From positions 1,099 to 65,098 of the forward strand of contig CAWASK010000010.1 of NCBI GenBank assembly GCA_963784735.1: 64,000 nucleotides of DNA. Direction: 5' to 3'. The position numbers and the translations under genes were made by a program. The notes below the pieces were generated by a model that was not told the DNA's origin, ran no database searches, and was given only the letters and a program-made list of their open reading frames with translations. Below are positions 23,118 through 42,761 of the stretch, in pieces (the stretch's first letter is position 1; the number at the start of each line of letters is the position of its first letter). The stretch is from an uncultured delta proteobacterium. GTDB lineage: Bacteria > Desulfobacterota > Syntrophia > Syntrophales > UBA4778.

Positions 23118-25525
23118 TATTTTCTGCTTATCAACCCTGTAATCACTTTTACCGCTTCCACCCCGTCCTTGGCGTATGCGGCGCCCAGCGACTCCGCAAA
23201 CGAACGGGTCACCACCGCACCGCCCAGGATAAAATGCCCGGCGGTTTTGCGCTTGCGGGCGAGATCAATGACCTCTTTCATCCTGACCATGGTGGTAGTC
23301 ATCAGGGCGGACAGGCCGATGACGTCAGGCCTTTCCCTCTCCGCTGTTTCCAGGATCCTGTCGGCAGGGACATCCTTCCCGAGGTCGATTACCCTGAACC
23401 CATGGTTCCTGAGGAGCAGCGAAACTATGTTCTTCCCGATATCGTGTATATCTCCCTCGACGGTGGCTATCATCACGGCCCCTTTGTCTTCGAAGGCTGC
23501 CTTTTCCCTCAGGAGGGGCTCGAGGTGGTCCACCCCCGCTTTCATGGCCTCGGCTCCCGCAATGAGCTGGGGCAGGAAATATTCCCTCTTCTCGAACAGC
23601 TCTCCCACCCTGGTGACGGCCGGAATCATAGTGTCCTGGACCAGGGCAAACGGGTCTTCCCCGGCTGAAACAGCCTTGTCTATGAGGGTTTTGATTGAAT
23701 CCTTATCCCCCTCCAGGACGGCGCGACGGATGATCCCGGGGAGACTCCGACAGGGGGGCCGGCTTTTCCGGTGCCGGGTTTTTCCGAGAAATACGATATG
23801 TAAGCCTTCGCCCCGCTGTCCCTGCCGGCAAGCAGGTCCGAAGCGGCCTTCACATTCATCAATTCGGAATGTGACGGGTTGGCGATGGCCATCGTGAGGC
23901 CCTTGTCAACCGCCATGGCGAGAAAAGACGCATTTGTCCAGTTGCGCGCGGGAAGGCCGAAAGAGACATTCGAAAGCCCTATGATCGTCTTCACCCCGAA
24001 TTTACCGAGAGCACCAGCTGACCATTTCCAGGGTTTCGCCGGCGGCCTTCGGGTTGGAGGCGACGGTCATCACCAGCCCGTCCACGACGAAATCATCCTT
24101 GGTGAAACCCAACCGGGCTGCCCTGCGTAAACCGACTTGACTATTTCCTTGCGCCGCTGCGCCGTTTCGGGCACCTCGCCGTCCGTGAGCGGCAGCAGGA
24201 TGAACATGGCCCCGTATTTCGCGGCAATGGGCAGGAGCCTCTCGATCTTCTCCCTCTCGCCGGAAATCGAGTTGATCAGCATGCGCCCCGGGTACAGGCG
24301 CAGGGCCGCCTCGATCGCCTCCACCTTGGGGGAATCGACCGCCAGGGGCAGGTCGGTTATGCCCGACAGGAAAGCAATGGCCTTTTTCATGATCGCCGGC
24401 TCGTCTATGCCGTGGGTGCCCACGTTCACGTCCAGCAGCTCGGCCCCCTGCTTTTCCTGGTCCCTGGCCATTTCGCGGATGAGCGACATGTCGGTGAGGC
24501 CTTTTTCCAGGGCCTCGCTGAGAGCTTCTTGCCGGTCGGGTTGATCCGCTCGCCCACGATGGCCAGGGGCTTGTCCGTTCTCCAGGATTATCGGCTTTCC
24601 TTGCCGAACTCAGGGCGCTGATGGATTTCCTCGCGGGCGCAATCGGACGCGCGCCTTCGACCGACCGGGCAAGCTCGCGGATGATGTTCCGGCGTCGTCC
24701 CGCAGCACCCGCCTATAAGGCAGACGCCTTCAGCCGCGAACGACTTTCCCGAAGGAGGCGAATCGTGCCGGGTCCATGTCGAATACGGTCCTGTCCGCTC
24801 AAGCCGGGGAAGGCCCGCATTGGGCTTGGCGACGAGCGGGACCTTTGGCATACGGCCGCATGAGCCTGATGAGGGACAGCATCTCCTCCGGGCCGGAGGA
24901 GCAGTTGCAGCCCACGGCATCGGCCCCGAGGCTCTGGAGGGTGATCAGCGCCGACACCGGGTCGGTGCCGTTCAGGGTCCTCCCGTCCCGTTCGTAGGTC
25001 ATGGTGACGATCGTGAAGAGCCCGCAGGCTTCCTTGACGGCGATAAGGGCCGCCCGCGCCTCCTGGATGTCCATCATGGTCTCGATGACAAACAGGTCCA
25101 CGCCGCCTTCGAGAAGCCCCAGGGCCTGCTCCTTGAACGCGTTGACGGCATCCTCGAAACCGAGGTCGCCGAATGGCTCGACAAACTTGCCCGTCGGCCC
25201 GATATCTCCCGCGACGAGGCATCGCTTTCCCGCCGCCGACCTGGAAAGTTTCGGCCAGGCCGCGGTTTATCTCTTTAACGTTATCTGCCCCGTACTCGGC
25301 CAGCTTGAAGCGGTTGGCGCCGAATGTCGGTGTGTAAATGATGTCGCAGCCGGAGTCCCGGTAAGCGGACTGGACATGGATAACGGTTTCGGGGTTTTCC
25401 AGGCACCACAGTTCCGGCGACGCCCCGGCCGGCATCCCGCATTTCTGCAGTTCCGTTCCCGTCGCACCGTCAAGGATGAGAATATTATTTTTGAGTCTTC
25501 TTTTGATGCTGATTTTTGAAGCCAT
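23117..25525 (-). CDS. metH: Cobalamin-dependent methionine synthase (homocysteine, pterin, cap and B12 domains; no activation domain; many frameshifts)
   Basis: ILDGATGT, GCNC, IGGCCGTTP, LDVNVG, GLSNVSFGLP, TVEGDIHDIGKNIV and GLSALMTTT. Confidence 0.88.
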
Positions 25526-25538
25526 TTGAGTCCTCCAG

Positions 25539-26169
25539 CTATGGGGCGGATTTTTCAATTCCGTAGACGGCTGTAACCGATTTCTCCGGGATGAGAAAAC
25601 AGCTATCCGTAATCTGCACGCCGATCCTGCCCAACTCCAGTTCCCGGTAGAAATAATCTCTGGTTCTCCAGGGCGAAATCGGCGTAGCCCGCCGAAAACC
25701 GGCGGGAAGTGAGGCGCCTGCCCTCCCTGCGGAGCCCGTTTTCAAAATAAGCCGCTATCCAGTCAAGGGCGCAATCGGTCATTTCGCTTGCGACCGCGTC
25801 GAAGACAACCCCTTTCGAGAGGTCGCCCCTGCGCTGTTTTCCCTGATCGCCTCAATTATCTCCGGCCCGCCGGTCGCGCGCCAGCAGCAGCACTTCGGAA
25901 GAGCCTGCAAGGAGCGAAGCCAGTTTTTTGCTTTCCAGCGCTGCGCCGTTTGCGAGCACGACCCCGGAAGTTCCCTTCCGTTCGATCTCAACCCTCCTGG
26001 CCGCACCCTTCAGATGGACCAGGTCGAGGGCCTGCTGCATGTCTGATTCCACCCGGGCCAGCCTCTCCCGGGAAAGCTCGGTGGTCCCCTCCTTGAAGCC
26101 GAGGCGCCGGAAAATCCTCTCCCTGGGGAGCTGCAAACTTATATTTTCAAATAATGAAAGCGCCGGCAT
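25539..26169 (-). CDS. Stand-alone methionine synthase activation-domain-like protein (frameshifted)
   Basis: IFRRLG N-terminus and IGVQITDSCFLIPEKSVTAVYG C-terminus; directly upstream of the truncated metH. Confidence 0.7.
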
Positions 26170-26248: not shown

Positions 26249-27043
26249 TCAGTGCCGCGAAGGGGTGCGGCGCACGGGGCAGATCCGGGGGAGTCCCGTT
26301 CCCGGATAGCTGTCCACGTGAATCCTCGTCCTGTACACGGATTCAATATTTGCTGCGGTGATGACGTCCTGGGGCTTTCCGTCCGAGAATACTCTGCCCG
26401 CGTTGAGCAGGATGACCCGGTCGGAATACAGGGCCGCCAGGTTGATGTCATGGGTGACCGCAATCACGGTCAGCTTTTCCCTGTCGCGCAATTCGCTCAC
26501 CAGGTCAAATATGGCGATCTGGTGCCTGATGTCGAGGAACGCCGTTGGCTCGTCAAGCAGCATGACCCGGGGCTGCTGCGCCAGGGCCCGGGCGATGAGG
26601 GCCCTCTGCCTCTCGCCGCCGCTCAACGAACCGATGGGCCTTGAGGCAAGCTTGAGCACCCCCGTCATTTCCATCGCCCTGTCGGCCACTTCCATGTCTT
26701 TGCGGCCTTCGAAACCGAACACCGGCAGGTGAGGCGCCCTGCCCATCAGGACGATTTCCCTGACGCTGAACGGGAAGATGTCGGGGCTTTCCTGGGGAAC
26801 AACCGCTATGGCCTGTGCGATCTTCCTCCTCCCCAGCGATTCCAGTGCCGCCCCTTCCAATTCGATTTTCCCCGTTTCAGGCTTAATCACACCGTCCATC
26901 AGCCTGAGCAGGGTCGTCTTGCCGGAGCCGTTCGGCCCTATGACACCGACAAACTCGCCCTCATGGACCCGGATGGAAACGTCTTCCAGCACCCAGGCGT
27001 CCGCATAGCGGAAACAGACATTGTCAAGGCTGATGGCCGACAT
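26249..27043 (-). CDS. btuD: Cobalamin/iron-chelate ABC transporter ATPase
   Basis: GPNGSGKTT, LSGGERQR and LLDEPT; located in a B12-riboswitch operon. Confidence 0.85.
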   Translation of the reverse strand: MSAISLDNVCFRYADAWVLEDVSIRVHEGEFVGVIGPNGSGKTTLLRLMDGVIKPETGKIELEGAALESLGRRKIAQAIAVVPQESPDIFPFSVREIVLMGRAPHLPVFGFEGRKDMEVADRAMEMTGVLKLASRPIGSLSGGERQRALIARALAQQPRVMLLDEPTAFLDIRHQIAIFDLVSELRDREKLTVIAVTHDINLAALYSDRVILLNAGRVFSDGKPQDVITAANIESVYRTRIHVDSYPGTGLPRICPVRRTPSRH

Positions 27044-27046
27044 TTC

Positions 27047-28057
27047 TCAGAAAGACCTCCGCCTGAGGAGATAGATAAAATAGGGAGCCCCGCAAAGGGC
27101 GGTTATGACCCCGACCGGAAGCTCCGCGGGTGCCATTGCCGTCCTGGCCACGGTGTCGGCGATCAGCATGAAGGATGCGCCGAAAAAACACGAGGCCGGC
27201 AAAAGCAGCCGGTGGTCGGAGCCGAACACCATTCTCATCATGTGAGGGATTATCAGGCCCACGAAACCGATTATCCCGCTTACTGAAACTGCTGCCGCGG
27301 TGATCAGGGAAGCGGCCGCGAGAAGGACCTTCTTTGTCTTGTCCACCGGGACGCCGAGGTGCCGGGCCGTCTCTTCGCCCGTCACGATCAGGTTCAGGGA
27401 CTTCGAAAAGTAATATACAAGCGCAAAGGCGCATGCCAGGATGGCGCCGCTTACCCAGAGCTGCTCCTCCCTGGCGGTGCTGAGGTCGCCCATCATCCAG
27501 AACATTATTGATTGAAGGTTGTTGCCGGAGCTCGTCGAAACGAGGAACATGATCAGCGCCGAAAAGAACGCGTTGACGATGACCCCGGCGAGCAAAAGCG
27601 TGTTCGACCCGGGATCTTTCGATTTTCCGGCTATACCGAAGACGAGGAATATCGTCAGGATGGCCCCCAGGAAGGAAAGGCCGGGGATTCCCCAGGAGCC
27701 AAACAGCGGCCCCAGAATGATGCCCACTATCCCGCCGAGCGCCGAACCGCCGGAAATGCCCAGTATGTAAGGGTCGGCGAGCGGATTTCGCAGCAGCGCC
27801 TGAAAGACCACGCCGGCGACCGCGAGCGACGCTCCGACAATCCCGGCAAATATTATGCGCGGCAGCCTGATGGAGAAGAGTATGGCCCGGTCTGTCTCCG
27901 AAAGGCTTAATCCGGATGACAAATTGCCCAGCAGGCCGATTATGTCGATGCGGGCAGCGCCCACCCCGAGAGAGACCGCTCCGAGGGCGAGGAACGCCGC
28001 GGCGAGCAGCGAACTGACCCGGATGACACGGGCCGGCGTTGTGAAATTATAATTCAT
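27047..28057 (-). CDS. btuC: FecCD/BtuC-family permease
   Basis: IRLPR, LRNPLADPYILGISGG, GFVGLIIPH and ELPVGVITA. Confidence 0.88.
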   Translation of the reverse strand: MNYNFTTPARVIRVSSLLAAAFLALGAVSLGVGAARIDIIGLLGNLSSGLSLSETDRAILFSIRLPRIIFAGIVGASLAVAGVVFQALLRNPLADPYILGISGGSALGGIVGIILGPLFGSWGIPGLSFLGAILTIFLVFGIAGKSKDPGSNTLLLAGVIVNAFFSALIMFLVSTSSGNNLQSIMFWMMGDLSTAREEQLWVSGAILACAFALVYYFSKSLNLIVTGEETARHLGVPVDKTKKVLLAAASLITAAAVSVSGIIGFVGLIIPHMMRMVFGSDHRLLLPASCFFGASFMLIADTVARTAMAPAELPVGVITALCGAPYFIYLLRRRSF

Positions 28058-28096
28058 TGCAACTCTCCGGCACTGCTTTGTTCAGTCCTCACACCT

Positions 28097-30167
28097 TTAA
28101 AATTCGGCCTTCAGCCCCGCCATGAAGTTGGCGGTGGGCGAAGGGTAATAGCCCCGTTCAGTTACAAATGTTGTCTGGTTAAAGACAATACCCCCGTATT
28201 CCGAATACTTCTTATCCGTTATGTTGTTTACGTTCAGATAAGCCGTGAGGTTCCGCCATTTGTACTGGAGTTTGGCATCGATGAAGTAATAGCTCTCCTG
28301 GTCGGGGAAGGCATTGGCAAAATCGGATATGAAGGGCCTGCTCCCCACGTAGGTACCGGACACGCCCAGGGTGAGCGCCTTGGTGATGGTAAAGTTCGCG
28401 CCCGCCGAGTACTTCTTTTCCGGCACCCCCGGGATCCACTTGCCGTCAAACTGCCCGCCGTCTATCTTTGCACGGGTGTACGTGAAATTGGCGTAGAGGG
28501 TCAGCCACTCCCTGGCCTTCCAGTCGGCAAAGAGTTCGATGCCTTCCCTGTCCGTGTCGTCGTCGAGGTTCATGTTTGTGTAAGTGTACGGGTTAAAGAA
28601 TATCTCATCGCTCGTCTTCACATAGAACAGGTTCACGCCGGCCTGCACGTTTCCCGGGAACCTGTGCCTGGCGCCCAGTTCGTACCCGTAAGAGACCTGG
28701 GGGTCTATATCCGAAACCGTGTTGGTGAAGAAGCTGAACAGCTCATCGAGCACCGGGTAGCGGAAACTCCTCGCAAAACTGAAATAGACCTGCGAAGTGT
28801 CGCGAATATTGTAGTTGACCCCTGCCGACCAGGCGTGTTCTTTCTTGATCACCTCGCCGCCCGGCCCGGGATTGAAGCTGTATTCGGCGCGCTGCTGCCT
28901 GTAGCCGCCGGACAGGGTCAGGCCTTTTAAAATTTCTATCTCGTCAAATATGTAGTAGCCGTAGTCAATTCTGCTCAAAGCATAGTTCGCCGTGCTGGCT
29001 GTCCCGAAAAAAAGGGAAGTGTTTTCGATGTCCTCGCTCGAATTGGCGTAATCAAAGCCGATTGTCAGCTTGTTGCCGAAACCGCCGATTTTTTCCATGA
29101 AGACGAATTGGGGGGTCAGGATGAAATTGGTCAGGTTGGTGTCGCCCGTGAAATTCCCCCCTACAAAGGAAGCAAACGACGAAAAGTCCCTGATTCGGAC
29201 AGAGGCGTCAAAATTGAAATAGTTGTCCCCCCAGAGGTATTTCTGCAGCCCGCCCTTCACGTAGCGGTCTTCCGTCTTGGCGAAATCGTTGGGGTAAATC
29301 GAGTCTTTGCGCGATATGCCGGCCCTCAGGTCGCTTTCTTTCAGCGCCCCTGGCAGGCCGTCGTTTTCCTTGTGATATCCCGAACTGAAACTAAGGATCG
29401 TCGTTTCGGTGGGATAGAACTTCATGTTGGCCCCCAGGTCTGAAGCCTCGACATCGCTGTTGAGCCTGTACCCGTTCGAGTTCAGATAGCTCGAATTCAA
29501 AGCGTAAGAGAGGCCATCCGCTTTTCCCTCGGCGAAGGCGCTTCCCGTATAGGTTTTGTAACTGCCGGCAGCGGCATCGAATCCCGCCCTATTGCGCCCT
29601 CCGTCTTTCGTTATGATATTTATTGCCCCCCCGGTCGCATTGTCTCCATACAGGACGGCCCCCCTGCCTCCCCTGAGGATTTCAATCCTCTTCACCCGGT
29701 CGAGAGGGATCTGGGTCCAGTCCGTGCCGCTCAGGTCTGCCTGGGTTACACGCCTGCCGTCCACGAGGACGACCGAGTTCAGGGCGGCGGTCTCGCCGAA
29801 CCCCCTGAGGTCCACGGTATATTTCCTCCTGTTGCCGGTATCCGACACCTGGATGCCGGGCAGGGCCCTCAAAAGTTCAGGTACGTTAACAGCCGTTGAG
29901 TTCCTGATGTCCTGTTCGCTGATGACCGAAACGTTGGCGGGTACTCGGCTCACTTCTTCCGCGTAACGGGAAGCCGTGACGACCACCTCTTCCATCCTGG
30001 CGGGCTTTTCAGGATTAGAACCCGATTGCCGGGCGGCCCCTTCCGGGGGCTGCTGGGCCGCAAGAGGGCCCGGACAGACGAAACAGCAGACGGATAATTA
30101 AGACAGCGAAATGCCTGAAGACAGAAAAACGGATTGAACGCGTGAAAAAAAGAGGACGAAATCCCAT
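28097..30167 (-). CDS. btuB: TonB-dependent receptor, BtuB-like (frameshift in the N-terminal region)
   Basis: TonB box EEVVVTASR, plug motifs (RIEILRG..LYG..GGAINIITK), C-terminal F, GGAGG RBS; downstream of the B12 riboswitch. Confidence 0.87.
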
Positions 30168-30189
30168 ACGTACACCTCCCGCGAGATTC

Positions 30190-30345
30190 AGATGGAAAAG
30201 TCTTCCGGCTCGGGACCTCCTACTAGCCCGCCTTCCCATCCGGGTCTTATCCTGGACAGTGGCATTTTCGGGTCTTCGTTTCCCTTACGGCTGCGGGGCA
30301 GCGGGGGCTTTTAACCCCCTTCCTTTTATCCACCCGTTGTATTTG
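30190..30345 (-). ncRNA. Cobalamin riboswitch
   Basis: Minus strand has AAAAGGAAGGGGTTAAAAGCCCCCGCTGCCCCGCAGCCGTAA...GCCACTG...GGGAAGG...GAGCCGGAAGAC, the conserved B12-element boxes in order. Confidence 0.9.
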
Positions 30346-30396
30346 AGATATTTCAAAACAGAAAACGCCGCTTTTGTCAAGCACTCAACCAGGCGG

Positions 30397-31236
30397 CTAT
30401 TTCCCGAAGAGTATTGTGGAGAGCTCATCGATGCCCTCGATGACGCGGGGGGAGAGCCTGAACAGGGCGTCCGAGGTGTAGTAGACCCGCCCGTTCCTGA
30501 CCGCCGGGAGCATTTTCAATTTCGACAGGAGTTCCCGAGAGTCCTCGCGCATTCTCCTGTGCCCCATGCCGATGAGGATCACGTCGGGCGACTGTCTTAT
30601 GAGTTCCTCGACTGAATATTTAACGTACTTCTTTCCGGCGGCAGCGGCGATATTGGTCCACCCGAGTATTTCCAGCGCGTCCTGGATGGCGTTGCCGTCC
30701 GCCGCGACTATGAGCGGGTCAGGCTGGACGATGAAAACCGCTTTCCCGGTCCCTTTCCCCGCCGAGCCCGTTTTCAATCTGGCGATGGTCTTTTCGATTT
30801 TTCCCGCGAGCCTGTCAGATTTCGCTTTCGTCCCAAGCACTGCGCCCATTTTCCTTATCTCACCCGGGAGGTCGGCGATCTTCCTCGCCTGGAAAACGTA
30901 TGTGCTGATGCCCAGCTTCAGGAGACGGTCATTTATCCACTTCGGGTTGCCGTCCGTCGTCATCAGGACCATGTCGGGCTTCAGGGAAACGATCATCTCG
31001 AGCGAAGGGTTGGAAAGGCCCCCCACCTTCGGCTTGAGTTTTGCCTGTTCCGGGTAATCGCAGTAATCCGATACGGCAACCACCCTGTTGCCCAGCCCCG
31101 TCGCATAGAGGATTTCTGTCATACTGGGCGCCAGCGATATGATCCTCTGGGGAGGGGCGCACAGGCCCGGCAAGGGAAGAGCCGTGACCAGCATGGCGGC
31201 CGAGAAGAGCATTACAAGCATCAGATTTTTCTTCAT
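30397..31236 (-). CDS. btuF: Periplasmic cobalamin-binding protein
   Basis: QRIISLAPSMTEILYA, VSDYCDYP, PSLEMIVSLKPD and LPAVRNGRVY. Confidence 0.88.
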   Translation of the reverse strand: MKKNLMLVMLFSAAMLVTALPLPGLCAPPQRIISLAPSMTEILYATGLGNRVVAVSDYCDYPEQAKLKPKVGGLSNPSLEMIVSLKPDMVLMTTDGNPKWINDRLLKLGISTYVFQARKIADLPGEIRKMGAVLGTKAKSDRLAGKIEKTIARLKTGSAGKGTGKAVFIVQPDPLIVAADGNAIQDALEILGWTNIAAAAGKKYVKYSVEELIRQSPDVILIGMGHRRMREDSRELLSKLKMLPAVRNGRVYYTSDALFRLSPRVIEGIDELSTILFGK

Positions 31237-31398
31237 TTCAATTCATCCCTGGAGACTGGAGTCTATATATCATGAGGGACCTTTTGTAAAATAGTTCAAC
31301 CCCGGCTTGATCCTGCAGACGCATTCAATAGATAATCGCTTGGAGTTATCCGGCACCAGTGATATAAATTTCCCACTTGATATACGGGAGGTCCGAAG

Positions 31399-32217
31399 AT
31401 GAAGAAAAAGCTGGTTTCCATGTCTGCCGCTGTCGGCATGGTTAGAGACGGCCAGATGCTTGGGGTAGGGGGCAATTCCCTGCACCGCTCGCCGGCCGCG
31501 TTCTGCCACGAACTGGCCGCCTCGGGCCGCGGCGCCTTGACGCTGGTGGGCGCAGCCCCGGGATACGCTTCGGATGTCCTGTGCGCTGCCGGGTGCGTGG
31601 ACAGGGTATACTTCGGCTTTTTCGGCTTTGAGAACGAATTCGGGCTCGCCCCGGGGTTCCGCAAGGGCTGCCAGGAAGGGAGGATCAAGGCCGTCGAAGG
31701 CTCCTGAACTGCCATAATAGCCGCCCTTCGTGCAGGGGCGTACGGGATACCTTTCATGCCGGTGGGAGGGATGTGGGGAAGCGGCCTGCTGGAGATCAAC
31801 CCGGATTTCTTCCAGGTGATGACTTCGCCCTTCAACGGCGAGAAGGCCGTTGCGGTCAGGGCGCTCGCGCCGGATTGGGCCGTCATCCACGTCCAGGAGG
31901 CGGACGAATTCGGCAACGCGCGCATCATCGGGTCCCAGTTCCAGGACCCCCTGCTTGCCAGGGCGGCCAGGAAAACAATTATCACAGCGGAAAAAATAGT
32001 TGGGACGGAAAAGTTCCGTGAGAGCCCGGAACACAATACAATTCCCCACTTCCTGGTCGAAGCTGTGGTCGAGGCCCCGAATGGGGCCCGGCCGGGCATA
32101 TGCTACGGCCTGTACGAATCGGTCGACGCAAAAGCCATGCGGGATTACGCAAATTCCATCCGGGACGGCGCTTTGCAGGGATACCTCGCCCGGGCAAGGG
32201 AAGGGAGGACACAATGA
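31399..32217 (+). CDS. CoA-transferase-fold alpha subunit (GctA/IpdA-like) with an in-frame UGA at codon 103, candidate selenoprotein
   Basis: ORFs 31399-31707 and 31756-32217 are in the same frame. Read-through gives KAVEGS-U-TAIIAALRAGAYGIPFMP, then PDWAVIHVQEADEFGNA. Confidence 0.85.
31722..31740 (+). promoter_or_regulatory. Candidate bacterial SECIS hairpin
   Basis: 7-bp stem CGCCCUU/AGGGGCG with loop CGUGC starting 21 nt after the UGA; G followed by U near the 5' side of the loop. Confidence 0.65.
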
Positions 32218-32942
32218 ATTACGGACCCGCGGAAATGATGTGCGTGGCGCTCGCCAGGGAAATAAGGGAAGGCGACACCGTGTTTCATGGCCTCGCTTCG
32301 CCCGTGCCCATGACCGCGATGAAACTCGCCAAGGCGCTCGGGAGGGAATTCACATACGTGAACATAACCGGCGGGGTTGACCCGCAATGGGAAAAGCCGG
32401 CCGTGACCGGATCTACCCTCTCGCCCGACCTGCACCGGGGGGCGGTGGCGAGCTACGGCCTGGACGAGATCTTTGACCTGGCCTGCTCGGGTAAAATAGA
32501 CATCGCCTTCCTCAGCTTTGTCCAGATGAGCCGGCGGGGTGAGATAAACATGTCGTTCGTGGGGGGCACTTATGACAGGCCGAAAGTGAGGCTTCCCGGG
32601 GGTGCCGGCAGCGCCACCCTGACGCCGGTCACGAAAAGGACCACGATCTGGAAGACGAAACACGACCGGAACTCCCTGGTGGAGAGGGTTTCTTTCGTGA
32701 CAGCCGCCCCCGACCCGGCAAAAGAGCTCACCGTTGTGACCAATCTGTGCATATTCAGGCTGAGGAATGGACTGCTGGAACCCGAATGCATATTCCCGTA
32801 TGCGACCATTGACGAGGTGAAAGAGAACACCGGCTGGGAGATACCTGACGATAACGTGCCTGTCTGCCCTCCGCCTACGCAGGAGGAGATCTCGGCATTG
32901 GAAAAAGTCGACCCCAACCGGATACGGTACATAGAGTTTTAG
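32214..32942 (+). CDS. CoA-transferase-fold beta subunit (GctB/IpdB-like)
   Basis: ATGA overlap with the alpha gene; AREIREGDTVFHG, FLSFVQMSRRGEIN, RLPGGAGS and VKENTGW. Confidence 0.88.
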   Translation: MNYGPAEMMCVALAREIREGDTVFHGLASPVPMTAMKLAKALGREFTYVNITGGVDPQWEKPAVTGSTLSPDLHRGAVASYGLDEIFDLACSGKIDIAFLSFVQMSRRGEINMSFVGGTYDRPKVRLPGGAGSATLTPVTKRTTIWKTKHDRNSLVERVSFVTAAPDPAKELTVVTNLCIFRLRNGLLEPECIFPYATIDEVKENTGWEIPDDNVPVCPPPTQEEISALEKVDPNRIRYIEF

Positions 32943-33130: not shown

Positions 33131-34435
33131 ATGAGATTCGACATTGCAAAACGCGGCAACGGCATGACCTACGAGATCCGCAATATCGTGGGCGTGGCCG
33201 ACAAATTAAAGGAATACGGAGTTGAAATACTCTGGGAGAATATCGGTGACCCAATTCAAAAAGGTGAAAAAATACCGGAATGGATGAAAGAGGAACTAAC
33301 CAAGCTTCTCCAGATGGACAGCTGTTACGGCTATTCGCCAACCAAGGGGATGGACGAGACAAGGGAATTCCTTGCCGGCAAAGTCAACGAGAGGGGAAAG
33401 ACCCAGATCACCAAAGAAGATATTATCTTCTTCAACGGCCTTGGCGACGCTATCGCCAGATCATACAGCGCAATCAGGCTTGACGCCAGGATAATCCTGC
33501 CGGAGCCCACTTATTCCACGCACTTCCTTGCCGAGGTGCTCCATGCGTCGTTCCCGCCGAACACTTACCGGATGAACCCTTATAACAACTGGCATCCGGA
33601 CATGCGGGAACTCGAGCAGAAGGTTAAAAGCCACCGGGCCATCGTGGGGATCCTCGTGATCAACCCGGACAACCCCACCGGTTTCGTCTACCCTCAGGAG
33701 ACTTTGAAGAGGATCGTTAAAATAGCCAAGGAAAATGACCTGTTCCTTGTCTTCGACGAGACCTATATCAATATGGTCTACAACGGCCAGAAGACCGTCC
33801 CGCTTTCGGACATAATCGAGGATGTCCCGGGGATAAGCATGAAAGGCATCTCGAAGGAATTCCCCTGGCCGGGCGCCCGGTGCGGTTGGATGGAGATTTA
33901 CAATTCAGAAAGGGACCCGAGCTTCTGCCGGTACATAAATGCGATCCTCAACCAGAAGATGTCCGAGGTCTGCTCCACGACCCTGCCCCAGATGTCCATT
34001 CCGGTACTCATGCAGCACCCGGAATATGATAATTACCTCAAGGAGCGAATCCTCAAGTACGAGAGGCTTTCCAATATCGCTTATGACATTTTCAAGGATG
34101 TGCCCTACATCGCGGTCAACCGGACAAACGGGGCCTTCTATATGTCTGTCGTCTTCAATGAGGCCGTTTTGAACGGCAGGCAGACGCTTCCCATAAAGCA
34201 GGAAGGCGTCAAGTCCTATATAGAGGGGATCCTCAACGACAAAATGGAGCACGACAAGCGCTTCGTCTATTATCTGCTTGCGGCTACCGGGATCTGCGTC
34301 GTCCCGCTGACCTCTTTCTTCACGCCCCTCCCGGGGTTCCGTCTCACACTCCTGGAGAAGGACGAGGAGAAATTTGAGGCGACCATAAGGAAGATCGCGG
34401 AAAAGATAGTTGAATATATAGATTCTGCAAGGTAG
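33131..34435 (+). CDS. PLP-dependent aminotransferase class I/II
   Basis: YEIRNIV, ENIGDP, INPDNPTG, DETY, SK..WPGARCGW and GAFY. Confidence 0.9.
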   Translation: MRFDIAKRGNGMTYEIRNIVGVADKLKEYGVEILWENIGDPIQKGEKIPEWMKEELTKLLQMDSCYGYSPTKGMDETREFLAGKVNERGKTQITKEDIIFFNGLGDAIARSYSAIRLDARIILPEPTYSTHFLAEVLHASFPPNTYRMNPYNNWHPDMRELEQKVKSHRAIVGILVINPDNPTGFVYPQETLKRIVKIAKENDLFLVFDETYINMVYNGQKTVPLSDIIEDVPGISMKGISKEFPWPGARCGWMEIYNSERDPSFCRYINAILNQKMSEVCSTTLPQMSIPVLMQHPEYDNYLKERILKYERLSNIAYDIFKDVPYIAVNRTNGAFYMSVVFNEAVLNGRQTLPIKQEGVKSYIEGILNDKMEHDKRFVYYLLAATGICVVPLTSFFTPLPGFRLTLLEKDEEKFEATIRKIAEKIVEYIDSAR

Positions 34436-35190: not shown

Positions 35191-36172
35191 TTAATCGCAA
35201 GGGAACACGCCCTTGACGGTAATGACAGCGGTAATAAGCTCCCGGGGCGTCACATCGAAGGCCGGGTACATCGCTTTGACATCGGGACCGCTGATCGGGG
35301 TCCCCAAAAACTCGAGGACCTCATCTTGGGTCGCGCTCCTCTATAGGTATATCGGAGCCCTTTTCGGTGCCCTTGTCCGCCCCCCCGTACCCGAGGATGT
35401 AAAAAGGCAGTCTGAAGTAGCGGGCGCAGATTGCCAGCTGCAGGGTCCCTATCTTGTTTGCGGCCGAACCGTCCATGGCAATCCTGTCCGCAGCCGTGAA
35501 TACCTTGTCGATTTTTCCGATGGACATGAAGTGGGCGGCCATGTTGTCCGTAATCAGGGTGGTATCAATGCCGAGGCAGCTCACCGACCATGCGGTGAGC
35601 CTCGCGCCCTGAAGATACGGGCGGGTCTCGGAGCAGATGACCTTTACCTCTTTGCCGTTTTCCTTTGCCGCTTTCAGCATGAACAGCAGGGCGGCCCCGG
35701 GAAAGCAGTGCGTCAGGATCGTGTCCCCGTCTGCCAGGAGCTTTTCGGCATTGGTCCCGGTGGCTTCGGAAAGCGCCCTTTGCTTTGCCATGATATTTTG
35801 CAGGAAAGAGAGGATGGCCGGGGCAGGCGGTCCCTCCCTGAAGGCGGCTCCCAGCAGTTTATCGACAAGGGCCGCGAGATGAAACCCTGTCGGTCGAGTC
35901 CTCTTCAGCCTCTCCGCCGCTTTCAGTATAACGGCCGGGTCATTCTCCAGGGCGGCAAGGTAGAGCCCGAATCCCGCCGTTACAGCGATATCGCCCGCGC
36001 CCTGGATTACCATATTTTCAATGGCCCTGGCGACGTCCTCATAATTTCTGCAGACCACCCGTGCAACCTCCCGGGGCAGTTTCCTCCGGTCAATCATGAC
36101 GAGGCACGTGTCCTCTAGGAACAAGTTGTTGGACAGGTCCATCAGCAAAGGTTCCAAAATGCCTCCTCTCAA
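35191..36172 (-). CDS. mtnA: S-methyl-5-thioribose-1-phosphate isomerase (frameshift near 35325)
   Basis: IDRRKLP, RTRPTG, ILTHC, ETRPYLQGARLT, ANKIGT and IEERDP; PAFDVTP after the shift. Confidence 0.88.
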
Positions 36173-36425: not shown

Positions 36426-38108
36426 GTGTATTTTGCAAAAGAATTGCTGGATGAATCCAGCCAACTCCGGAAGAGATGGGAAGACGAGGTCAAGAAGACC
36501 GTTGCCAAATGGGCCGACCAGAAACCGCGCTGGTCAACGGTATCGGACCTCGAAATAAAGAGGCTCTACACGCCTGAGGACATTAAAGACATGGACTTTG
36601 CCCGCGATATTGGATATCCCGGGCAATTTCCGTTTATAAGGGGCAATCAGGCCACAGGCTACCGCGGGAAGTACTGGACATTCCGCATGTTCTCCGGGAT
36701 GGGCAGCGCCAAGGAAACCAACGCGCGCTGGCATATGCTCCTCAAGGAAGGCCAGACGGGCCTTTCGACCGCGTTCGACTTCCCGACCCTGATGGGCTAT
36801 GACACAGACTCACCCAAGGCCAGGGGCGAATGCGGGAAGTGCGGCGTCGCCATCGACACGCTGGACGATTTCCTCCAGCTCGTTGACGGCATTCCCATGG
36901 ACAAGATCACCACCTCGATGACCATCAATCCGCCGGCAACCGCCCTTTGGGCAATGTACTGCGCGGCTGCAGATATGAGGGGCATCCCCCTGACCAAGAT
37001 CGGCGGCACGATCCAGAACGACATGCTCAAGGAATTCATCGCGCAGAAGACACTGATGTGCCCGCCCGAACCCTCGGTCAAGCTGATCAGCGACACGGTC
37101 GAGTTCGGGACCAAGTACGTTCCAAGGTGGAACACGATCTCCATCAGCGGATACCATATCCGCGAGGCTGGAGCCACTGCCGTCCAGGAACTCGCTTTCA
37201 CCCTGCGTGACGGAATGGAATATGTTGAGGACGTTATGCGCCGCAAAGGCCTCGCAGTCGATGAATTTGCTCCCCGTCTATCGTTCTTCTTCAACTCCCA
37301 TATCGACTTCTTCGAGGAGATCGCCAAACTGCGCGCCGCCCGCAGGATCTGGGCAAAGGCCATGCGTGACAGGTACAAATCAAAAGACGAACGCTCCTGG
37401 TGGATGAGGTTCCACACTCAGACGGCAGGCTGTTCGCTTACTGCCCAGCAGCCGTATAACAACGTAGTCAGGACCGCTACAGAAGCGCTTGCGGCGGTGC
37501 TGGGCGGGACGCAGTCCCTTCATACCAACTCCCTGGACGAAGTGCTCTGTCTGCCTTCAGACACGGCAGTCCAGATCGCGCTTCGAACCCAGCAGATCAT
37601 CGCCGAGGAAACCGGTGCGGCCAATACAATCGACCCGCTGGCCGGCTCCTATTTCGTCGAGGCGCTCACCAACGAAATGGAAGAGAAGGCATGGGATTAC
37701 ATCCACAAGATCGACGAGATGGGCGGAATGGTCGCCGCCATCGAAAAAGGCTTCCCCCAGCTCGAGATCGCCGATGCCGCTTACACTTACCAGCGGCAGA
37801 TCGATGCCGGCGAGAAGATCATGATCGGCATCAACAAGTATTTATCTGATGAGGTCACCCCGATTCCTTTCCTGGAAATCGACGACAAAGTAGAGACCGA
37901 ACAGATCGAAAGGCTCGCTGCCGTCCGCAGGAGAAGGGACAGCAAGGCCGTGAAGCGCTGCCTCGATGACCTGAAGAGCGCCTGCAAGAAGGGCGATAAC
38001 GTTATGCCCTTCTGTATCGAAGCTGTGAAGAACATGGTCAGCGTCCAGGAAATCTGCGACGTTTATCGCGAGGTCTTCGGCGAATACCGAGATCCGGGTC
38101 TGTACTAA
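36426..38108 (+). CDS. B12-dependent acyl-CoA mutase large subunit, isobutyryl-CoA-mutase-like residues
   Basis: PGQFPFIRG, GLSTAFD, TSMTIN, GTIQNDMLKE, ISGYHIREAG, FHTQT and QSLHTN. Confidence 0.93.
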   Translation: MYFAKELLDESSQLRKRWEDEVKKTVAKWADQKPRWSTVSDLEIKRLYTPEDIKDMDFARDIGYPGQFPFIRGNQATGYRGKYWTFRMFSGMGSAKETNARWHMLLKEGQTGLSTAFDFPTLMGYDTDSPKARGECGKCGVAIDTLDDFLQLVDGIPMDKITTSMTINPPATALWAMYCAAADMRGIPLTKIGGTIQNDMLKEFIAQKTLMCPPEPSVKLISDTVEFGTKYVPRWNTISISGYHIREAGATAVQELAFTLRDGMEYVEDVMRRKGLAVDEFAPRLSFFFNSHIDFFEEIAKLRAARRIWAKAMRDRYKSKDERSWWMRFHTQTAGCSLTAQQPYNNVVRTATEALAAVLGGTQSLHTNSLDEVLCLPSDTAVQIALRTQQIIAEETGAANTIDPLAGSYFVEALTNEMEEKAWDYIHKIDEMGGMVAAIEKGFPQLEIADAAYTYQRQIDAGEKIMIGINKYLSDEVTPIPFLEIDDKVETEQIERLAAVRRRRDSKAVKRCLDDLKSACKKGDNVMPFCIEAVKNMVSVQEICDVYREVFGEYRDPGLY

Positions 38109-38131
38109 AATTTCAGGAGGGGACACAAATT

Positions 38132-38536
38132 ATGGCAAAAAGAAAGATTCGCATAATGGTTGCAAAACCCGGGCTCGATGGACACGACCGGGGCGCAAGG
38201 GTTCTCGCACGCTGTTTCCGTGATGCGGGGTTCGAAGTCATTTACACGGGGTGTCACCAGACTCCGGAACAGATAGCCGCTTCGGCTATCCAGGAAGATG
38301 TTGATGTAGTCGGGCTGAGCTGTTTATCAGGTGCCCACCGGTACCTGTTTCCCGCGGTCGTCAAACTGCTCAAAGAACAAGGTGCTGAAGATATCACGGT
38401 CATCGGCGGCGGAATCATCCCGGAACAGGATTTCCAGGGCCTCTATGATGCCGGACTCAAAGCTCTCTTCACACCCGGCGCGAAGCTCGATTATATTGTG
38501 GAGTGGATAAATACAAATATCAATCCAAGAGCATAA
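38132..38536 (+). CDS. Acyl-CoA mutase cobalamin-binding small subunit
   Basis: KPGLDGHDRG, GLSCLSGAH and GGIIP. Confidence 0.94.
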   Translation: MAKRKIRIMVAKPGLDGHDRGARVLARCFRDAGFEVIYTGCHQTPEQIAASAIQEDVDVVGLSCLSGAHRYLFPAVVKLLKEQGAEDITVIGGGIIPEQDFQGLYDAGLKALFTPGAKLDYIVEWINTNINPRA

Positions 38537-38551
38537 AAAGGGTTAAAAAGA

Positions 38552-39518
38552 ATGGAAATAGGAAAGAAGATCAAGGCGGGGGATGTAAGGGCTGCTTCCC
38601 GCCTGATCAGAAACATTGAAGACAATATACCCGAAGCAAAAACGACGTTAAAACATATTTTCCACATGACCGGCAATGCACATGTTGTCGGTATAACCGG
38701 ATCGCCCGGGGCCGGTAAATCAACGCTGGTCGACGGGCTCATAGAATTCACGCGCAAAAGGAACAAAACGGTCGGTGTGCTGGCCGTCGACCCCACAAGC
38801 CCGTTTACGGGCGGCGCCATTCTCGGAGACAGGATCCGGATGCAGCGCCACGCCGAGGATCCGGGCGTGTTCGTCAGGAGCCTGGCAACCAGGGGGGCGC
38901 TGGGGGGGCTGGCAAAAGCAGTCGGTGATGCCATTCACGTGCTTGATGTCATGGGCAAGGATTTCGTCCTTGTCGAGACAGTCGGAACAGGCCAGCAGGA
39001 AGTCGAGATCATCAACCACGCCCATACGGTAATTGTCGTACTGGTGCCGGGCATGGGAGATGAGATCCAGGCCATCAAGGCCGGCATTATGGAGATCGCC
39101 GATATCTTCGTGGTCAACAAGGCGGACCGTGACGGGGCGGGCAAACTCCAGAGAGAGCTTATGGCCGTTCTCGACATGTCCAATATACCAAAGGGCGGCT
39201 GGAGGCCCCCGATCCTTTCCATCGGCAACGCGTTCGATCCGGCGGAATTTGAGCGGGGCGTGACAGAGCTCACCGCCAAGGTCCAGGAGCATTATGACCA
39301 CCTGGTGCAGAGCAATATGCTAGGGGACAGAAGGCGCCGCAAAGCGGCCCACGAACTCAATGAGGCAATGCGGGCCAGCATACTCGAACCGGTGCTCCTG
39401 AAAGCTGGTTACATCCGGCGAGTTGGACAAAATGATCGACACGCTGCTTAAAAAAGAAACCGATCCCTATACGGTTTCCGAACAGGTTGCAAAACAGTTT
39501 TTGAAAGACTGCATGTAG
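38552..39518 (+). CDS. meaB: Mutase-associated GTPase MeaB (C-terminal frameshift)
   Basis: GITGSPGAGKST, AVDPTSPFTGGAILGDRIRM, ETVGTGQ and VNKAD. Confidence 0.93.
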
Positions 39519-39540
39519 GAAGAATGCGCTGTTAAATAAA

Positions 39541-39572
39541 GGCCCGGGGCTGTTTCGGCCCCGGGTTTTTTT
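39541..39572 (+). terminator. Intrinsic terminator
   Basis: CCCGGGGCTG-TTT-CGGCCCCGGG followed by a T7 run. Confidence 0.75.
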
Positions 39573-39577
39573 AAAAC

Positions 39578-39670
39578 AGGCATTAGGCATTGGGCGTCAG
39601 GCATTAGGGCATGGTACTTTTACGAATGATAGTACCTTGCCTAACGCCTAATGCCTGATGCCTGATGCCT
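39578..39670. repeat. Inverted array of heptamer repeats
   Basis: AGGCATT-like units, GGTAC, a spacer, GTACC, then ATGCCT(A/G) units. Confidence 0.75.
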
Positions 39671-39687
39671 CAAATCGAGGTAACCTT

Positions 39688-40245
39688 ATGACTTCAAACG
39701 TAATCGAAGAAACCCTGGCGAAATTCAACCAGGGCCTTGTCATCGTGATCACGGGAAACGGCAAGGGAAAAACAACGGCTGCCATGGGCCAGGCGCTCCG
39801 GGCGCTGGGGCACGGCTTCAAGGTGCTCGTCGTGCAATTCATGAAGGGCAAGAAATACGGCGAGGTATTGTGCGCCGAAAAGCACCTGCCTGACCTCAAG
39901 ATAATCCCGTGCGGTCTCGACAGTTTTGTCATGAAGGACAACCCCGCCCCGGTGGATATAGAACTCGCGCGCCAGGGCCTGAAGCTCGTGAAAGAAGCGC
40001 TGGCCTCAAAAGAGTACCAGATGATAATCCTCGACGAGATCAATGTGGCCCTGGATTTCAAACTCGTCGCGCTCGAAGAGGTCCTCGACATGATCAGGAA
40101 CAAGCCGAAAGAGATCGACCTCGTCCTCACGGGCAGATACGCGCCGCCGGAAATAATCGAGCTTGCCGATACCGTCAGCGAGGTCCAGGAGATCAAGCAC
40201 CACTATTCAAAAGGGGTCAAGGAGCGGGCCGGGATAGAATTCTAA
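39688..40245 (+). CDS. cobO: Cob(I)yrinic acid a,c-diamide adenosyltransferase, CobA/CobO/BtuR type
   Basis: TGNGKGKTTAA, VQFMKG, ILDEIN, VLTGR and KHHY..G..GIEF. Confidence 0.93.
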   Translation: MTSNVIEETLAKFNQGLVIVITGNGKGKTTAAMGQALRALGHGFKVLVVQFMKGKKYGEVLCAEKHLPDLKIIPCGLDSFVMKDNPAPVDIELARQGLKLVKEALASKEYQMIILDEINVALDFKLVALEEVLDMIRNKPKEIDLVLTGRYAPPEIIELADTVSEVQEIKHHYSKGVKERAGIEF

Positions 40246-40757: not shown

Positions 40758-42506
40758 ATGGATCAGGAGGTTTATATGAACGAAGGGGTCAGAAAAGAAA
40801 TCGGGGTATTGCGTATATTATTCACAATCATCCTTTCTCTGGTAGTTCTGTTTTGCACTGCCTGCGGGGGCGGGGATATTTCCGGCGGAGACTCATCTCG
40901 CGGTTCGGCTGACACTGATAAGGTCACCGGGCTGAAGGTCACGGATGTGTACAGGAACAAGGTTGCGATCGCATGGGACTCCTGCATCGGGGCCGCCGGC
41001 TACACAGTATACCGCGACGGTGACCCTGTCGCGACGACGACGGAGCCTTACTATCTGGATTCAGGCCTTACCCAGGGGAAACCTTACAAGTACAAGGTGG
41101 CCGTCATCAACGACAAATCAACCGAGAGCACAGAAATCGAAGGCACGCCGCTCCCCTGGACCAAGAAAATGCCCGGCCAGATCAATGTGATAAAACAATT
41201 CGGGAACTACGTTTACATTGGCGGGACAAATACCTTTTACCCGGACGGCCGCGAATGGAGCTGGTATGCGGACGCATACCTTGCCAAGTACGACCTGAAC
41301 GGGAACCTCGTCTGGGAGACCACCTTCAAGCACTTGACCGACAATGCAAAATATACCGACTGGGTGAGCGACATAGCCATCAGCCCCTCCGGCGATAACT
41401 TGTATGTTACCGGCACAGTGGATTATCTCAGTGACGAAAAAGCGAGAATCAGGAGATTATGCGGGAGTTTATAAATTCCTCAAAGGGAACTCTTTCATCG
41501 CCAAGTTCGATATAAGCGGCGATAAACCCAGGCAGAAATGGCTCAATATCGTCTTCGATATCCCCAATAATCTGAGCTTCGGGGAAAAGATCGCCGTTGA
41601 CTCCAGCGAGAATGCGTATGTCCTCAGCAAAATCGAGTTTGACGTGGGTTATATAAGCAATCCCAACTGGACCTGCTCGGTCACATCATACGACAAGAAC
41701 GGCAACTCGCGCTGGGTCTACCGCTGGAACCTGGTTGAAACCATGTCTACCGGGGTTCATTTCCACCCGCATTTACTGGATATTGACAGGAACGGCAACC
41801 TTTACGTGTCCGGCCAGCTCCAGGGCGTCAAGATCTACTACGGCTATTATGCCACGTATGACCTTCAAGAGAAGAAGCCCCTTGGCGACGGCGGATATTC
41901 AATCTACTATATTCCCTCATTCCTCAGGGCCAGGCTCAACCTGAACACCGGTATCCCGGAATGGGAAGTCGTTCAGAAATCTGGCTGGAACCCGGCCAAC
42001 CCGACCGTCCTCGACCCTCTCACAGGCAATACGTACCATTGCATGCTGGATATCGACATATGGGGCGACTGGCCTAACCGGGGGCTGATGAAGACCGGTC
42101 CCGACGGCGACATCGCCTGGCTTGTCGGGAATATTACCGAAAGGAATGCAGACAATACGGGAGATTCAGGACTATTGGTCCATTCAGTACGATAATGAAC
42201 TCATTGTACCTGGGCGGCATAAATTACGATACCCAATATGGATGGGATATACACCTGGCAAAATATGACGTTTCGGGGACGTCGCCTCAACTGGTTTACA
42301 GAAATACATTTGTGCCCATCGATCCAAAAAAGAATTCCGAAGAGGACTTCCTGTGGACCATGGGAATTGTTAAAGGCGGGGGCAACACCAGTATCTGGGC
42401 GGTAGTGAGGACAACCACCGAAATTGACGGTCTTCCCAAAAAAGAAGGCGATTATTACGCCTGGTACCTGATGAGGTTTGACGCCGATGCACAAAGCTGG
42501 TGGTAA
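40758..42506 (+). CDS. Lipoprotein with an FN3 domain and beta-propeller-like repeats (two frameshifts)
   Basis: Lipobox CTACGGG, FN3 pattern (IAW..YTVYRDG..YLDSGL..YKYKV), repeated LAKYD..GN..W and IAVDS..N.YV units. Confidence 0.72.
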
Positions 42507-42540
42507 TCGTATTGTAATCTGAAAATACCCAAAAGGCAGC

Positions 42541-42568
42541 GGGCCCGGGTTTTCCCGGGCCCTTTTTC
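42541..42568 (+). terminator. Intrinsic terminator
   Basis: GGGCCCGGG-TTTT-CCCGGGCCC-TTTTT. Confidence 0.7.
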
Positions 42569-42761
42569 TGCCAAAATCTTCTATTTTGCCGCGTTTGTTC
42601 CTGAAAATTCGTCGGGCCTTTTGCCCGCGGCGTTTGCCCCCGCTATGCAGGACAACGACAAATATTTCGGTCCCAGCCATGCATTCATTTCAAATACATT
42701 GCAAACATGCTGCGGATGGATTTATAAAATCACCGTCCCAAACGTCTGAAAAGGAGGAGTC

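Follow-up and report, generated by a model that had tools for sequence, protein, structure and literature searches.

A probable selenocysteine-containing enzyme on the class I CoA-transferase fold in an uncultured Syntrophales bacterium

We analysed a 64,000-nucleotide stretch of DNA (the window) from an uncultured delta proteobacterium of the order Syntrophales (GenBank assembly GCA_963784735.1, contig CAWASK010000010.1, positions 1,099 to 65,098 of the forward strand), in which two adjacent genes code for the alpha and beta subunits of a protein related to class I coenzyme A (CoA) transferases and the alpha gene is interrupted by an in-frame TGA at codon 103. An earlier note, made from the letters alone, had proposed that this codon specifies selenocysteine (Sec) as a catalytic residue of a non-canonical acyl-CoA enzyme; the proposal is supported, and no refutation test that was run spoke against it. 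Our overall reading, to which we give a probability of about 0.6, is that the pair forms a heteromeric enzyme which has the class I CoA-transferase fold without being a CoA-transferase, that the alpha subunit is a true selenoprotein and that the selenol is redox-active. Taken separately, the insertion of selenocysteine at UGA103 is very probable from the sequence comparisons, and an active-site or catalytic role of Sec103 is likely. A redox cycle with a reductase partner could equally well be true or false, and the reductive cleavage of an alpha-C-X bond as the chemistry is unlikely enough to be offered as a suggestion.

Translation of the alpha gene across the TGA gave ...VEGS-U-TAIIAALRAGAYGIPFMPVGG..., with a single TGA and an unchanged frame, and the Pfam family PF01144 (CoA_trans) matched both halves of the protein (profile positions 3-217 of 217, E 6.6e-30). 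The gene is thus broken by one stop codon without a frame shift, and family-like sequence continues on both sides of it, as the earlier note had described. None of the NCBIfam models reached its cut-off with the alpha or the beta protein. The frame breaks seen elsewhere in the assembly, in SelA, SelB, a gene for a CoA-disulfide reductase (CoADR) with a rhodanese domain (RHD) and a fragmented MetH, were all indels and not substitutions, unlike the break in the alpha gene. The codon was checked in Illumina-derived contigs from four runs of four studies (three DNA, one RNA) that lie over the alpha region; these runs represent relatives or strains, none of them containing half of the searched words, and 124 weakly supported differences were left out of the listing of contig differences. 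Contigs from the three DNA runs (three studies) bridged positions 31705-31707, with no listed difference there and no indels anywhere in the region, and contig X17, from the RNA run of the fourth study, covered the TGA with only 11 nt beyond it and was not counted as bridging. The listed strain differences that were checked fell on third codon positions, 5' and 3' of the TGA alike. TGA is also the commonest ordinary stop of the genome, ending 478 of 887 long high-scoring open reading frames (ORFs), and the alpha gene itself ends in TGA; the codon is therefore not globally reassigned.

The comparison with homologues showed that residue 103 is Cys in all 111 full-length proteins among the best 120 database matches, in line with the Cys homologues mentioned in the earlier note. 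The other nine matches were fragments of 152-166 residues, 70-81% identical to the query, which begin just past the residue-103 column, as expected of gene callers that stop at a TGA. Where a source name was present in the fragment clusters (3 of the 17 members read), it was 'glutaconate CoA-transferase subunit A'. A scan with one genome per species gave 80 loci, in which the residue-103 codon was TGA in 39, TGC in 25 and TGT in 16, so that the predicted mixture of TGA and TGY homologues was found. The TGA carriers belong to the Thermodesulfobacteriota, Bacillota, Spirochaetota and Chloroflexota and include Syntrophaceae, Syntrophobacteraceae, Desulfovibrionaceae, many Syntrophomonadaceae, Pelotomaculum, Desulfosporosinus (among them the cultured D. 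metallidurans OL, locus L062), one Spirochaetota genome and one Chloroflexia genome; two genomes of the same genus as the window's, G001 and G002, carry it as well. Among 61 genomes of the same order, 22 matches were obtained, 11 of them with exactly one TGA, always at the same column, and these TGA genes form two clades. In a quick maximum-likelihood tree, one clade that crosses phyla gathers the majority of the Sec forms (46 rows, of which 41 are Sec and 5 Cys), and at least seven switches between Sec and Cys were needed.

The second selenoprotein clade of the order (L019, L021, L022, L024, L025, L028 and L029) has the same fold, is only 35-39% identical to the window alpha and carries the motif ETM-U-PALLLGLQAG, with the TGA at the same column and a hairpin of its own at the same place (GGGCUCCA / UGGRGCCC). 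Its gene cluster (contexts L037, L038 and L044) contains DUF364/DUF4213, a Glu-bearing CoA-transferase pair, Amidohydro_2 and a divergent ADP-forming acyl-CoA synthetase.

A hairpin resembling the bacterial selenocysteine insertion sequence (bSECIS) lies behind the TGA of the window gene, separated from it by 14 unpaired bases. According to excerpts of PMC13188914, the bSECIS model has a stem of 4-16 bp, a loop of 3-9 nt with a G among its two leading bases, 16-37 nt from the UGA to the loop and a minimum free energy of -7.5 kcal/mol or lower; with 7 bp, a CGUGC loop, 21 nt from UGA to loop and -10.5 kcal/mol, the window hairpin lies within all four published constraints. The stem, loop and bSECIS fit reported in the earlier note hold, and its distance of 21 nt has to be corrected: this is the start of the loop, the stem beginning 15 nt after the TGA. 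Across 40 TGA genes the seven stem pairs were formed in 91.6% of the cells of the alignment, a value reached by 0 of 500 shuffles, and controls with partners slid by 1-3 columns gave only 26-67% pairing. The covariation score of the stem in the TGA genes was 0.246, again reached by 0 of 500 shuffles, and both inner pairs that join two synonymous third positions covary, with UA, CG and GC types. In the 41 Cys genes the same columns were paired in 43.2% of cells, which corresponds to chance (355 of 500 shuffles reach it, and the slid controls are alike). The peptide encoded by the hairpin region is ALRAGA in 35 of the 40 TGA genes versus mostly ALRAAS or GLRAAx in Cys genes, and a Gly codon supplies the 3' stem arm of the TGA genes. 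These sequences are related and not independent, but the contrast between Sec and Cys genes controls for this kinship. The hairpin is thus predicted to help decode UGA103 as selenocysteine.

Three proteins of the selenocysteine machinery were found in the genome of the window. SelA is present as two abutting pieces in different frames (284 and 217 bits), SelB as at least three pieces split between frames on the window's own contig, and SelD (386 bits) contains one in-frame TGA of its own and is, by this sign, probably a selenoprotein itself. The split SelA, split SelB, TGA-bearing SelD and broken CoADR-rhodanese gene of this genome (G000) were located at C1:183890-184988, C10:82332-84226, C13:27617-28546 and C14:5547-7131. 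Among five relatives carrying the TGA gene, three had a tRNA-Sec above the Rfam cut-off, and the remaining two are fragmented assemblies of the same genus with a tRNA-Sec score just under it.

We compared the alpha subunit with proteins of known structure. A phmmer search of the PDB gave GctA (1.8e-34), IpdA (1.5e-29) and AibA (4.8e-27), and an AlphaFold model of alpha, built from 14 sequences, had a mean predicted local distance difference test score (pLDDT) of 92.2 and Foldseek template-modelling (TM) scores of 0.86-0.90 against AibA, IpdA and GctA. In this model, whose fold superposes on IpdA and GctA as the proposed structural check required, residue 103 is at the N-terminus of a helix (103-115), directly behind a strand; a helix start after a strand is a typical place for an activated nucleophile. 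In the HMMER alignment residue 103 stands opposite the E of REMDEGM in 6co6_A and the A of REMDAGM in 6coj_A. PDB entry 6coj is entitled 'IpdAB E105A COCHEA-CoA complex', and this title together with the Ala at the aligned column therefore puts Sec103 at the position of IpdA Glu105; the alignment given in the earlier note, with Glu at the UGA position, was right in substance. We take Glu105 to be the catalytic residue of IpdA, an assumption whose one backing is this PDB title. GctA has Gln and AibA has Gly at this column. A second cysteine, Cys235, is also conserved, with Cys in 99% of 112 rows: it is kept in 42 of 42 Sec forms, 41 of 41 Cys forms and 4 of 4 clade-B forms, and is replaced by M or S in three canonical-transferase paralogues.

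The beta subunit matched PF01144 (E 4.4e-11) and, among PDB sequences, AibB (1.5e-25), GctB (1.1e-6) and IpdB (2.7e-4). It reads YVNITGGVD, with Ile51 at the column of the transferase Glu and aligned with Cys56 of AibB, which confirms the loss of the catalytic Glu claimed in the earlier note; a Leu stands opposite AibB Glu72, in a loop region of uncertain alignment. Excerpts of the literature describe AibB Cys56 as standing in for the catalytic Glu of glutaconate CoA-transferases (PMC7756340) and IpdB as having Gly57 in place of the transferase Glu (PMC5380842). At this column Glu is absent from all 75 partner betas (I 41, L 30, V 3, G 1) and present, within the motif TEGG, in 23 of 25 paralogous betas that belong to a second pair at the same loci; the Sec/Cys pair is therefore not a CoA-transferase. 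A real CoA-transferase pair often adjoins it. In terms of class membership, both subunits have the CoA_trans fold and the class I catalytic Glu of beta (Glu54 in GctB) is missing. The pair shares with the IpdAB type a beta subunit without the transferase Glu and has Sec or Cys in place of the alpha Glu105; the beta Cys56 (with Glu72) of the AibAB type is absent.

The genes around the loci were then taken from a codon-usage-scored list, since G+C-rich DNA has long antisense ORFs, and neighbour families were mostly assigned by BLAST clustering, with Pfam or NCBIfam used to check a few examples. Of the 80 loci, 29 have a CoADR gene immediately upstream on the same strand and 24 have Hdr-like sets. 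Flanks of the full 7 kb were available for 52 loci (25 Sec, 27 Cys); a CoADR-type flavoprotein or an Hdr-like CCG set was present in 38 of these, 21 with Sec and 17 with Cys. The upstream flavoprotein exceeded the NCBIfam cut-off for CoA-disulfide reductase (558 versus 458 bits), in a family-library check that covered two members of the flavoprotein cluster and a few Hdr-like members. In Syntrophomonadaceae, Pelotomaculum and Desulfovibrionaceae the order of genes is HdrB-like, HdrA-like, HdrC-like, HdrB-like, transferase pair, MFS/CstA transporter and Sec pair, often followed by a CoA-disulfide-reductase-like protein of 547-555 residues with a rhodanese domain. In the same genus and order as the window, an ADP-forming acyl-CoA synthetase adjoins the pair, and in other Syntrophales the pair is accompanied by an Amidohydro_2 protein and a second transferase pair. 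In Clostridia the Cys pair belongs to a bacterial microcompartment (BMC) operon, present in 16-17 loci (including L113, L116, L117, L119, L121-L128, L131, L132 and L138), that comprises a class II aldolase, an aldehyde dehydrogenase, three BMC shell proteins, PduL, a solute-binding-like protein, CoA-disulfide reductase, alpha, beta, an Fe-alcohol dehydrogenase, Dak1 and Dak2. The CoADR and the Cys pair of two Bacillota loci have around them genes for an MtnK-like kinase, an MtnA/DrdI-like isomerase, a class II aldolase and an aldehyde dehydrogenase. Other neighbours across the loci are an AMP-ligase, a CoA-acylating aldehyde dehydrogenase, PduL and the Glu-bearing second CoA-transferase pair. 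As read from gene order, these neighbourhoods point to thiol/selenol redox chemistry coupled to disulfide reductases rather than to a Glu-like acid/base role, which refines the earlier proposal. For the Clostridial CoADR together with the alpha and beta chains, a complex prediction scored 0.00 ('no answer'), and nothing was drawn from it.

Separately, the Hdr-like genes of one locus (L083, 15-3383) gave weak matches to NCBIfam NF045663, 'diclust_near_Sec' (fused flavoprotein/dicluster/CCG), a family that NCBI named for proximity to a selenoprotein gene. The features of the window itself, including genes on either side of the pair, are collected in Table 1.

Table 1 Features of the pair and its surroundings in the window
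Feature	Position	Strand	Remarks
Alpha subunit gene	31399-32217	+	272 codons, one UGA read through; CoA-transferase family I fold, GctA/IpdA/AibA group
Shine-Dalgarno-like GGGAGG	31386-31391	+	7 nt 5' of the alpha start codon; read from the sequence
UGA codon 103, probable selenocysteine	31705-31707	+	Aligned with IpdA Glu105; Cys homologues, TGA homologues
Bacterial SECIS-type hairpin	31722-31740	+	7-bp stem 31722-31728 / 31734-31740 with one G-U; loop CGUGC 31729-31733
Cys235 codon TGC	32101-32103	+	Second invariant Cys, candidate resolving thiol
Beta subunit gene	32214-32942	+	242 codons, AibB-like; start overlaps the alpha stop (ATGA)
Beta Ile51 codon ATA	32364-32366	+	Column of the catalytic Glu of class I CoA-transferases
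Methionine-synthase-like gene	23117-25558	-	Apparently broken into several ORFs (S-methyl_trans, Pterin_bind, B12-binding_2 + B12-binding), the indel-type break noted earlier; probably an assembly error
B12-uptake operon	26249-31236	-	Divergent from alpha; BtuF-like binding protein, TonB-dependent receptor, FecCD permease, ABC ATPase
Cobalamin riboswitch	30183-30367	-	79.4 bits; heads the B12-uptake operon
Class I/II aminotransferase gene	33131-34435	+	Downstream of beta; adjacent in same-genus G001 too
IF-2B/MtnA-family isomerase-like gene	35321-36172	-	
Methylmalonyl-CoA mutase set	36426-40245	+	Large subunit, B12-binding subunit, MeaB, corrinoid adenosyltransferase
ORFs	40758-43811	+	Faint fn3 or beta-propeller-repeat matches, or no family

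From the recoding signature, the loss of the transferase Glu, the alignment with IpdA Glu105 and the neighbourhoods, all of which are observed, we infer a chemistry and a substrate. Sec103, at the helix N-terminus, would face the acyl-CoA site, and its selenolate (the thiolate in Cys forms) would act as a redox-active nucleophile attacking an acyl-CoA bound as in IpdAB and AibAB. In turnover Sec would become oxidised, its bonding partner being either Cys235 (a selenenyl-sulfide) or a released thiol or CoA (a mixed (seleno)disulfide), and a flavoprotein of the CoA-disulfide-reductase type or, in the syntrophs, an HdrABC-like iron-sulfur system would re-reduce it. The neighbouring acyl-CoA enzymes would supply or consume the acyl-CoA. 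In the chemistry that we favour, a C-S (or other C-X) bond adjoining the thioester carbonyl would be cleaved reductively and the fold would stabilise the enolate.

A more specific version, which by analogy would make the pair a Sec/Cys-dependent reductive lyase for alpha-substituted acyl-CoAs on a CoA-transferase scaffold and hence a new enzyme class, appears quite unlikely. Sec103 would react with the heteroatom, or with the alpha-carbon adjoining the thioester, the transferase oxyanion site would keep hold of the enolate, and the Se-S species would be reduced by the dedicated CoA-disulfide reductase or the HdrABC-like module. A candidate substrate, suggested speculatively by neighbours like those of the dihydroxyacetone phosphate (DHAP) shunt, would be 2-(methylthio)acetyl-CoA, giving acetyl-CoA and methanethiol. 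The context cited for this version comprises the MtnK/MtnA-like loci of the two Bacillota, the Clostridia BMC operons and the MtnA-family gene, aminotransferase and MetH of the window. A search of the 80 loci for an IF-2B/MtnA-like neighbour turned up just two with one, and the link to methionine salvage is therefore kept for this version alone. If true, it would bring glycine-reductase-type chemistry to a CoA thioester and connect selenium both with anaerobic sulfur/methionine salvage (the DHAP shunt) and with a microcompartment pathway.

Several observations weigh against the reading of the pair as a redox-active selenoenzyme. Folded as a single sequence, the hairpin was not above chance, since 21 of 200 shuffles of the 23-nt hairpin were as stable (z -1.36) and the 60-nt stretch around it had z = +0.76 against shuffles; the evidence for it is for this reason comparative. 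Neither ARAGORN nor Rfam RF01852 revealed a tRNA-Sec in the assembly, whose completeness is 70% and which has 38 tRNAs, so that of the expected machinery SelA, SelB and SelD (the first two split) were found; the best RF01852 matches in the genome (42.9 bits) were tRNA-Gly, Trp, Ser, His, Leu and Tyr, and an Rfam scan of the window gave only the cobalamin riboswitch and two tRNAs. We attributed the splits of SelA and SelB to assembly indels; they may also reflect decay of the machinery in this strain. Cys235 is found in GctA and AibA too, neither of which is a redox enzyme. The window pair has no adjacent reductase or acyl-CoA enzyme, its neighbours being the B12-uptake operon and the aminotransferase; close homologues of the synthetase, the CoADR-RHD protein and the Hdr-like proteins are encoded on other contigs of the genome. 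In 14 of the 52 full loci neither type of reductase is present. The case for redox made from gene order is guilt by association, and the loci are related, so that the counts overstate independence.

The main rival explanation, which we regard as somewhat unlikely, is one in which Sec103 is catalytic without redox cycling, as a covalent or acid/base catalyst, and the nearby disulfide reductases serve other steps or keep the selenol reduced. The enzyme could then be an IpdAB-like hydrolase of ring or beta-keto-acyl-CoAs, an AibAB-like decarboxylase or a thiolase-like enzyme with an acyl-selenoester intermediate. Such chemistry is carried out by the closest solved relatives, according to excerpts of PMC7756340 and PMC5380842. 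Residue 103 takes the place of IpdA Glu105, the Syntrophales pair with Amidohydro_2 and the ADP-forming acyl-CoA synthetase looks like a catabolic hydrolase or decarboxylase cluster, and the full loci lacking any reductase fit as well. However, selection for Sec is as a general rule rare except in redox or X-philic chemistry, selenols make poor general acids at neutral pH, and a second invariant Cys accompanies residue 103. The CoADR immediately upstream and the Hdr-like sets, at the frequencies given above, are also hard to square with a pure hydrolase or decarboxylase.

That UGA103 is a true stop is very improbable. The gene would then be a pseudogene or would yield an N-terminal polypeptide of 102 residues and a C-terminal one of 153 residues restarting at ATG 31756, as might be suggested by the 152-153-residue products that gene callers annotate, by the position of this ATG 48 nt downstream of the UGA, and by the missing tRNA-Sec and broken SelA and SelB of the assembly. 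Against this, the 16 codons from the UGA to the ATG encode the family-invariant I107, R111 and G116 and are in frame in all TGA genes, the strain differences in this stretch are at third codon positions, and several TGA genes have no Met there (e.g. FLPV or YQTM). TGA occurs at one column in 39 or more genomes of several phyla, together with a covarying hairpin not seen in Cys genes, and the repeated Sec/Cys switches on the tree are not a decay pattern.

More improbable still is a readthrough in which near-cognate decoding, or a local recoding signal that is not SelB/SECIS, puts Cys, Trp or some other standard residue at the UGA. UGA can be misread in vitro and in Sec-deficient hosts, and the tRNA-Sec missing from the assembly would agree with this, but the hairpin fits the SelB-dependent bSECIS model, the carriers that were checked have SelA/B/D or tRNA-Sec, and TGA is the commonest ordinary stop of the genome. 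The chance that an error of base calling or assembly turned TGC or TGT into this TGA, which the frame breaks in SelA, SelB, MetH and the CoADR-RHD gene might suggest, is negligible, because those breaks are indels and not substitutions, the short-read contigs of four other studies list no difference at the codon and no indels, and TGA is also found in the same-genus G001 and G002 and in 37 other species.

The reading of the pair as a selenoenzyme adds to the selenoproteins of anaerobes a widespread family, found in syntrophic oxidisers of fatty acids and propionate, in sulfate reducers and in others. Annotation splits its TGA genes into fragments (152 residues in databases), so that selenoproteome sizes and metabolic models are off. 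Besides transfer, hydrolysis by IpdAB and decarboxylation by AibAB, it suggests a fourth kind of chemistry for the CoA-transferase scaffold, one that would rely on a thiol or selenol as nucleophile and has genetic links to CoA-disulfide reductase or Hdr-like reductases. Because cultured Clostridia, such as [Clostridium] aerotolerans DSM 5434 (locus L128), carry Cys forms and a cultured Desulfosporosinus carries the TGA form, the question is open to bench work, and the contrast between Sec and Cys genes in the hairpin is a clean natural case of RNA structure in a coding region shaping synonymous sites and encoded residues.

The earlier note did not recognise the protein among the classic bacterial selenoprotein families, and the catalogue main texts that were searched agree. 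No CoA-transferase or PF01144 entry stands in the selenoprotein family tables in the main text of PMC13188914 (2026), and no CoA-transferase in those in the main text of PMC9312934 (2022), whose supplements could list the family. None is among the deep-Sep additions named in the main text of PMC13188914 or in the consulted parts of the deep-Sep paper PMC12013277, nor in those of the 2006 bacterial survey (PMC1794560, which lists selenoproteins of Syntrophomonas and Syntrophus) or the 2007 symbiont survey (PMC1976440). By title and abstract, the literature on selenocysteine with CoA-transferase or glutaconate CoA-transferase, and that on Syntrophomonas with Hdr or CoADR, held nothing relevant. 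For the Clostridia BMC module with CoADR and the Cys pair, 'CoA transferase' does not occur in the main text of a BMC catalogue (PMC8217296), and no paper was found that joins BMC, class II aldolase, CoA transferase, disulfide oxidoreductase and dihydroxyacetone kinase. This Sec/Cys family may be new: its recoding is of the usual kind, and selenium is not known to have been reported for its fold or its enzyme class, although supplements may have listed the family before. The parent Cys-dependent family is uncharacterised.

Compared with catalogued prokaryotic selenoproteins, the family has the same in-frame UGA, Cys homologues, bSECIS and TGA homologues in other Sec users, and differs in its fold, since most families listed in the main texts of PMC13188914 and PMC9312934 have thiol-oxidoreductase folds. 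Among enzymes of the same fold, IpdAB, the COCHEA-CoA hydrolase of steroid-degrading actinobacteria (PDB 6co6, 6co9, 6coj and 6con), is also a two-subunit protein of the GctAB type with a beta subunit that lacks the transferase Glu, and its alpha subunit supplies a presumably catalytic residue, Glu105, at the very column of Sec103. It differs from the window pair in having Glu where Sec or Cys is found here, in a beta subunit far less similar to ours than AibB is (2.7e-4 versus 1.5e-25), and in gene context, the present loci having no steroid genes and, at related loci, disulfide reductase neighbours. Excerpts of PMC5380842 document IpdAB as an enzyme other than a CoA-transferase. The 3-methylglutaconyl-CoA decarboxylase AibA/AibB (PDB 5mzw-5n03) is the best structural match of alpha (TM 0.89-0.92) and the best sequence match of beta, and is likewise a non-transferase with an active-site thiol instead of Glu (excerpts of PMC7756340). 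In AibAB this thiol, Cys56 of AibB, is dispensable, whereas here that position is Ile51 and the thiol or selenol is at alpha 103, a Gly in AibA. The class I CoA-transferases (PF01144), GctAB among them, share the fold, the subunit organisation, the best alpha sequence match (1.8e-34) and, in GctA, Cys235, but they have the beta catalytic Glu that is absent here, and GctA has Gln at residue 103. We know of no selenoprotein form of AibAB. In glycine, sarcosine and betaine reductase and in 2-ketopropyl-CoM carboxylase, a C-X bond adjoining a carbonyl is broken by a nucleophilic Sec or Cys to give an enolate or acyl-thioester and an oxidised Se-S or S-S species, which is re-reduced by a pyridine-nucleotide disulfide reductase system. 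These enzymes are mechanistic analogues only, without kinship in sequence or fold; the neighbourhoods of the Sec/Cys pair suggest the same logic, applied to what would here be a CoA thioester held in a transferase fold.

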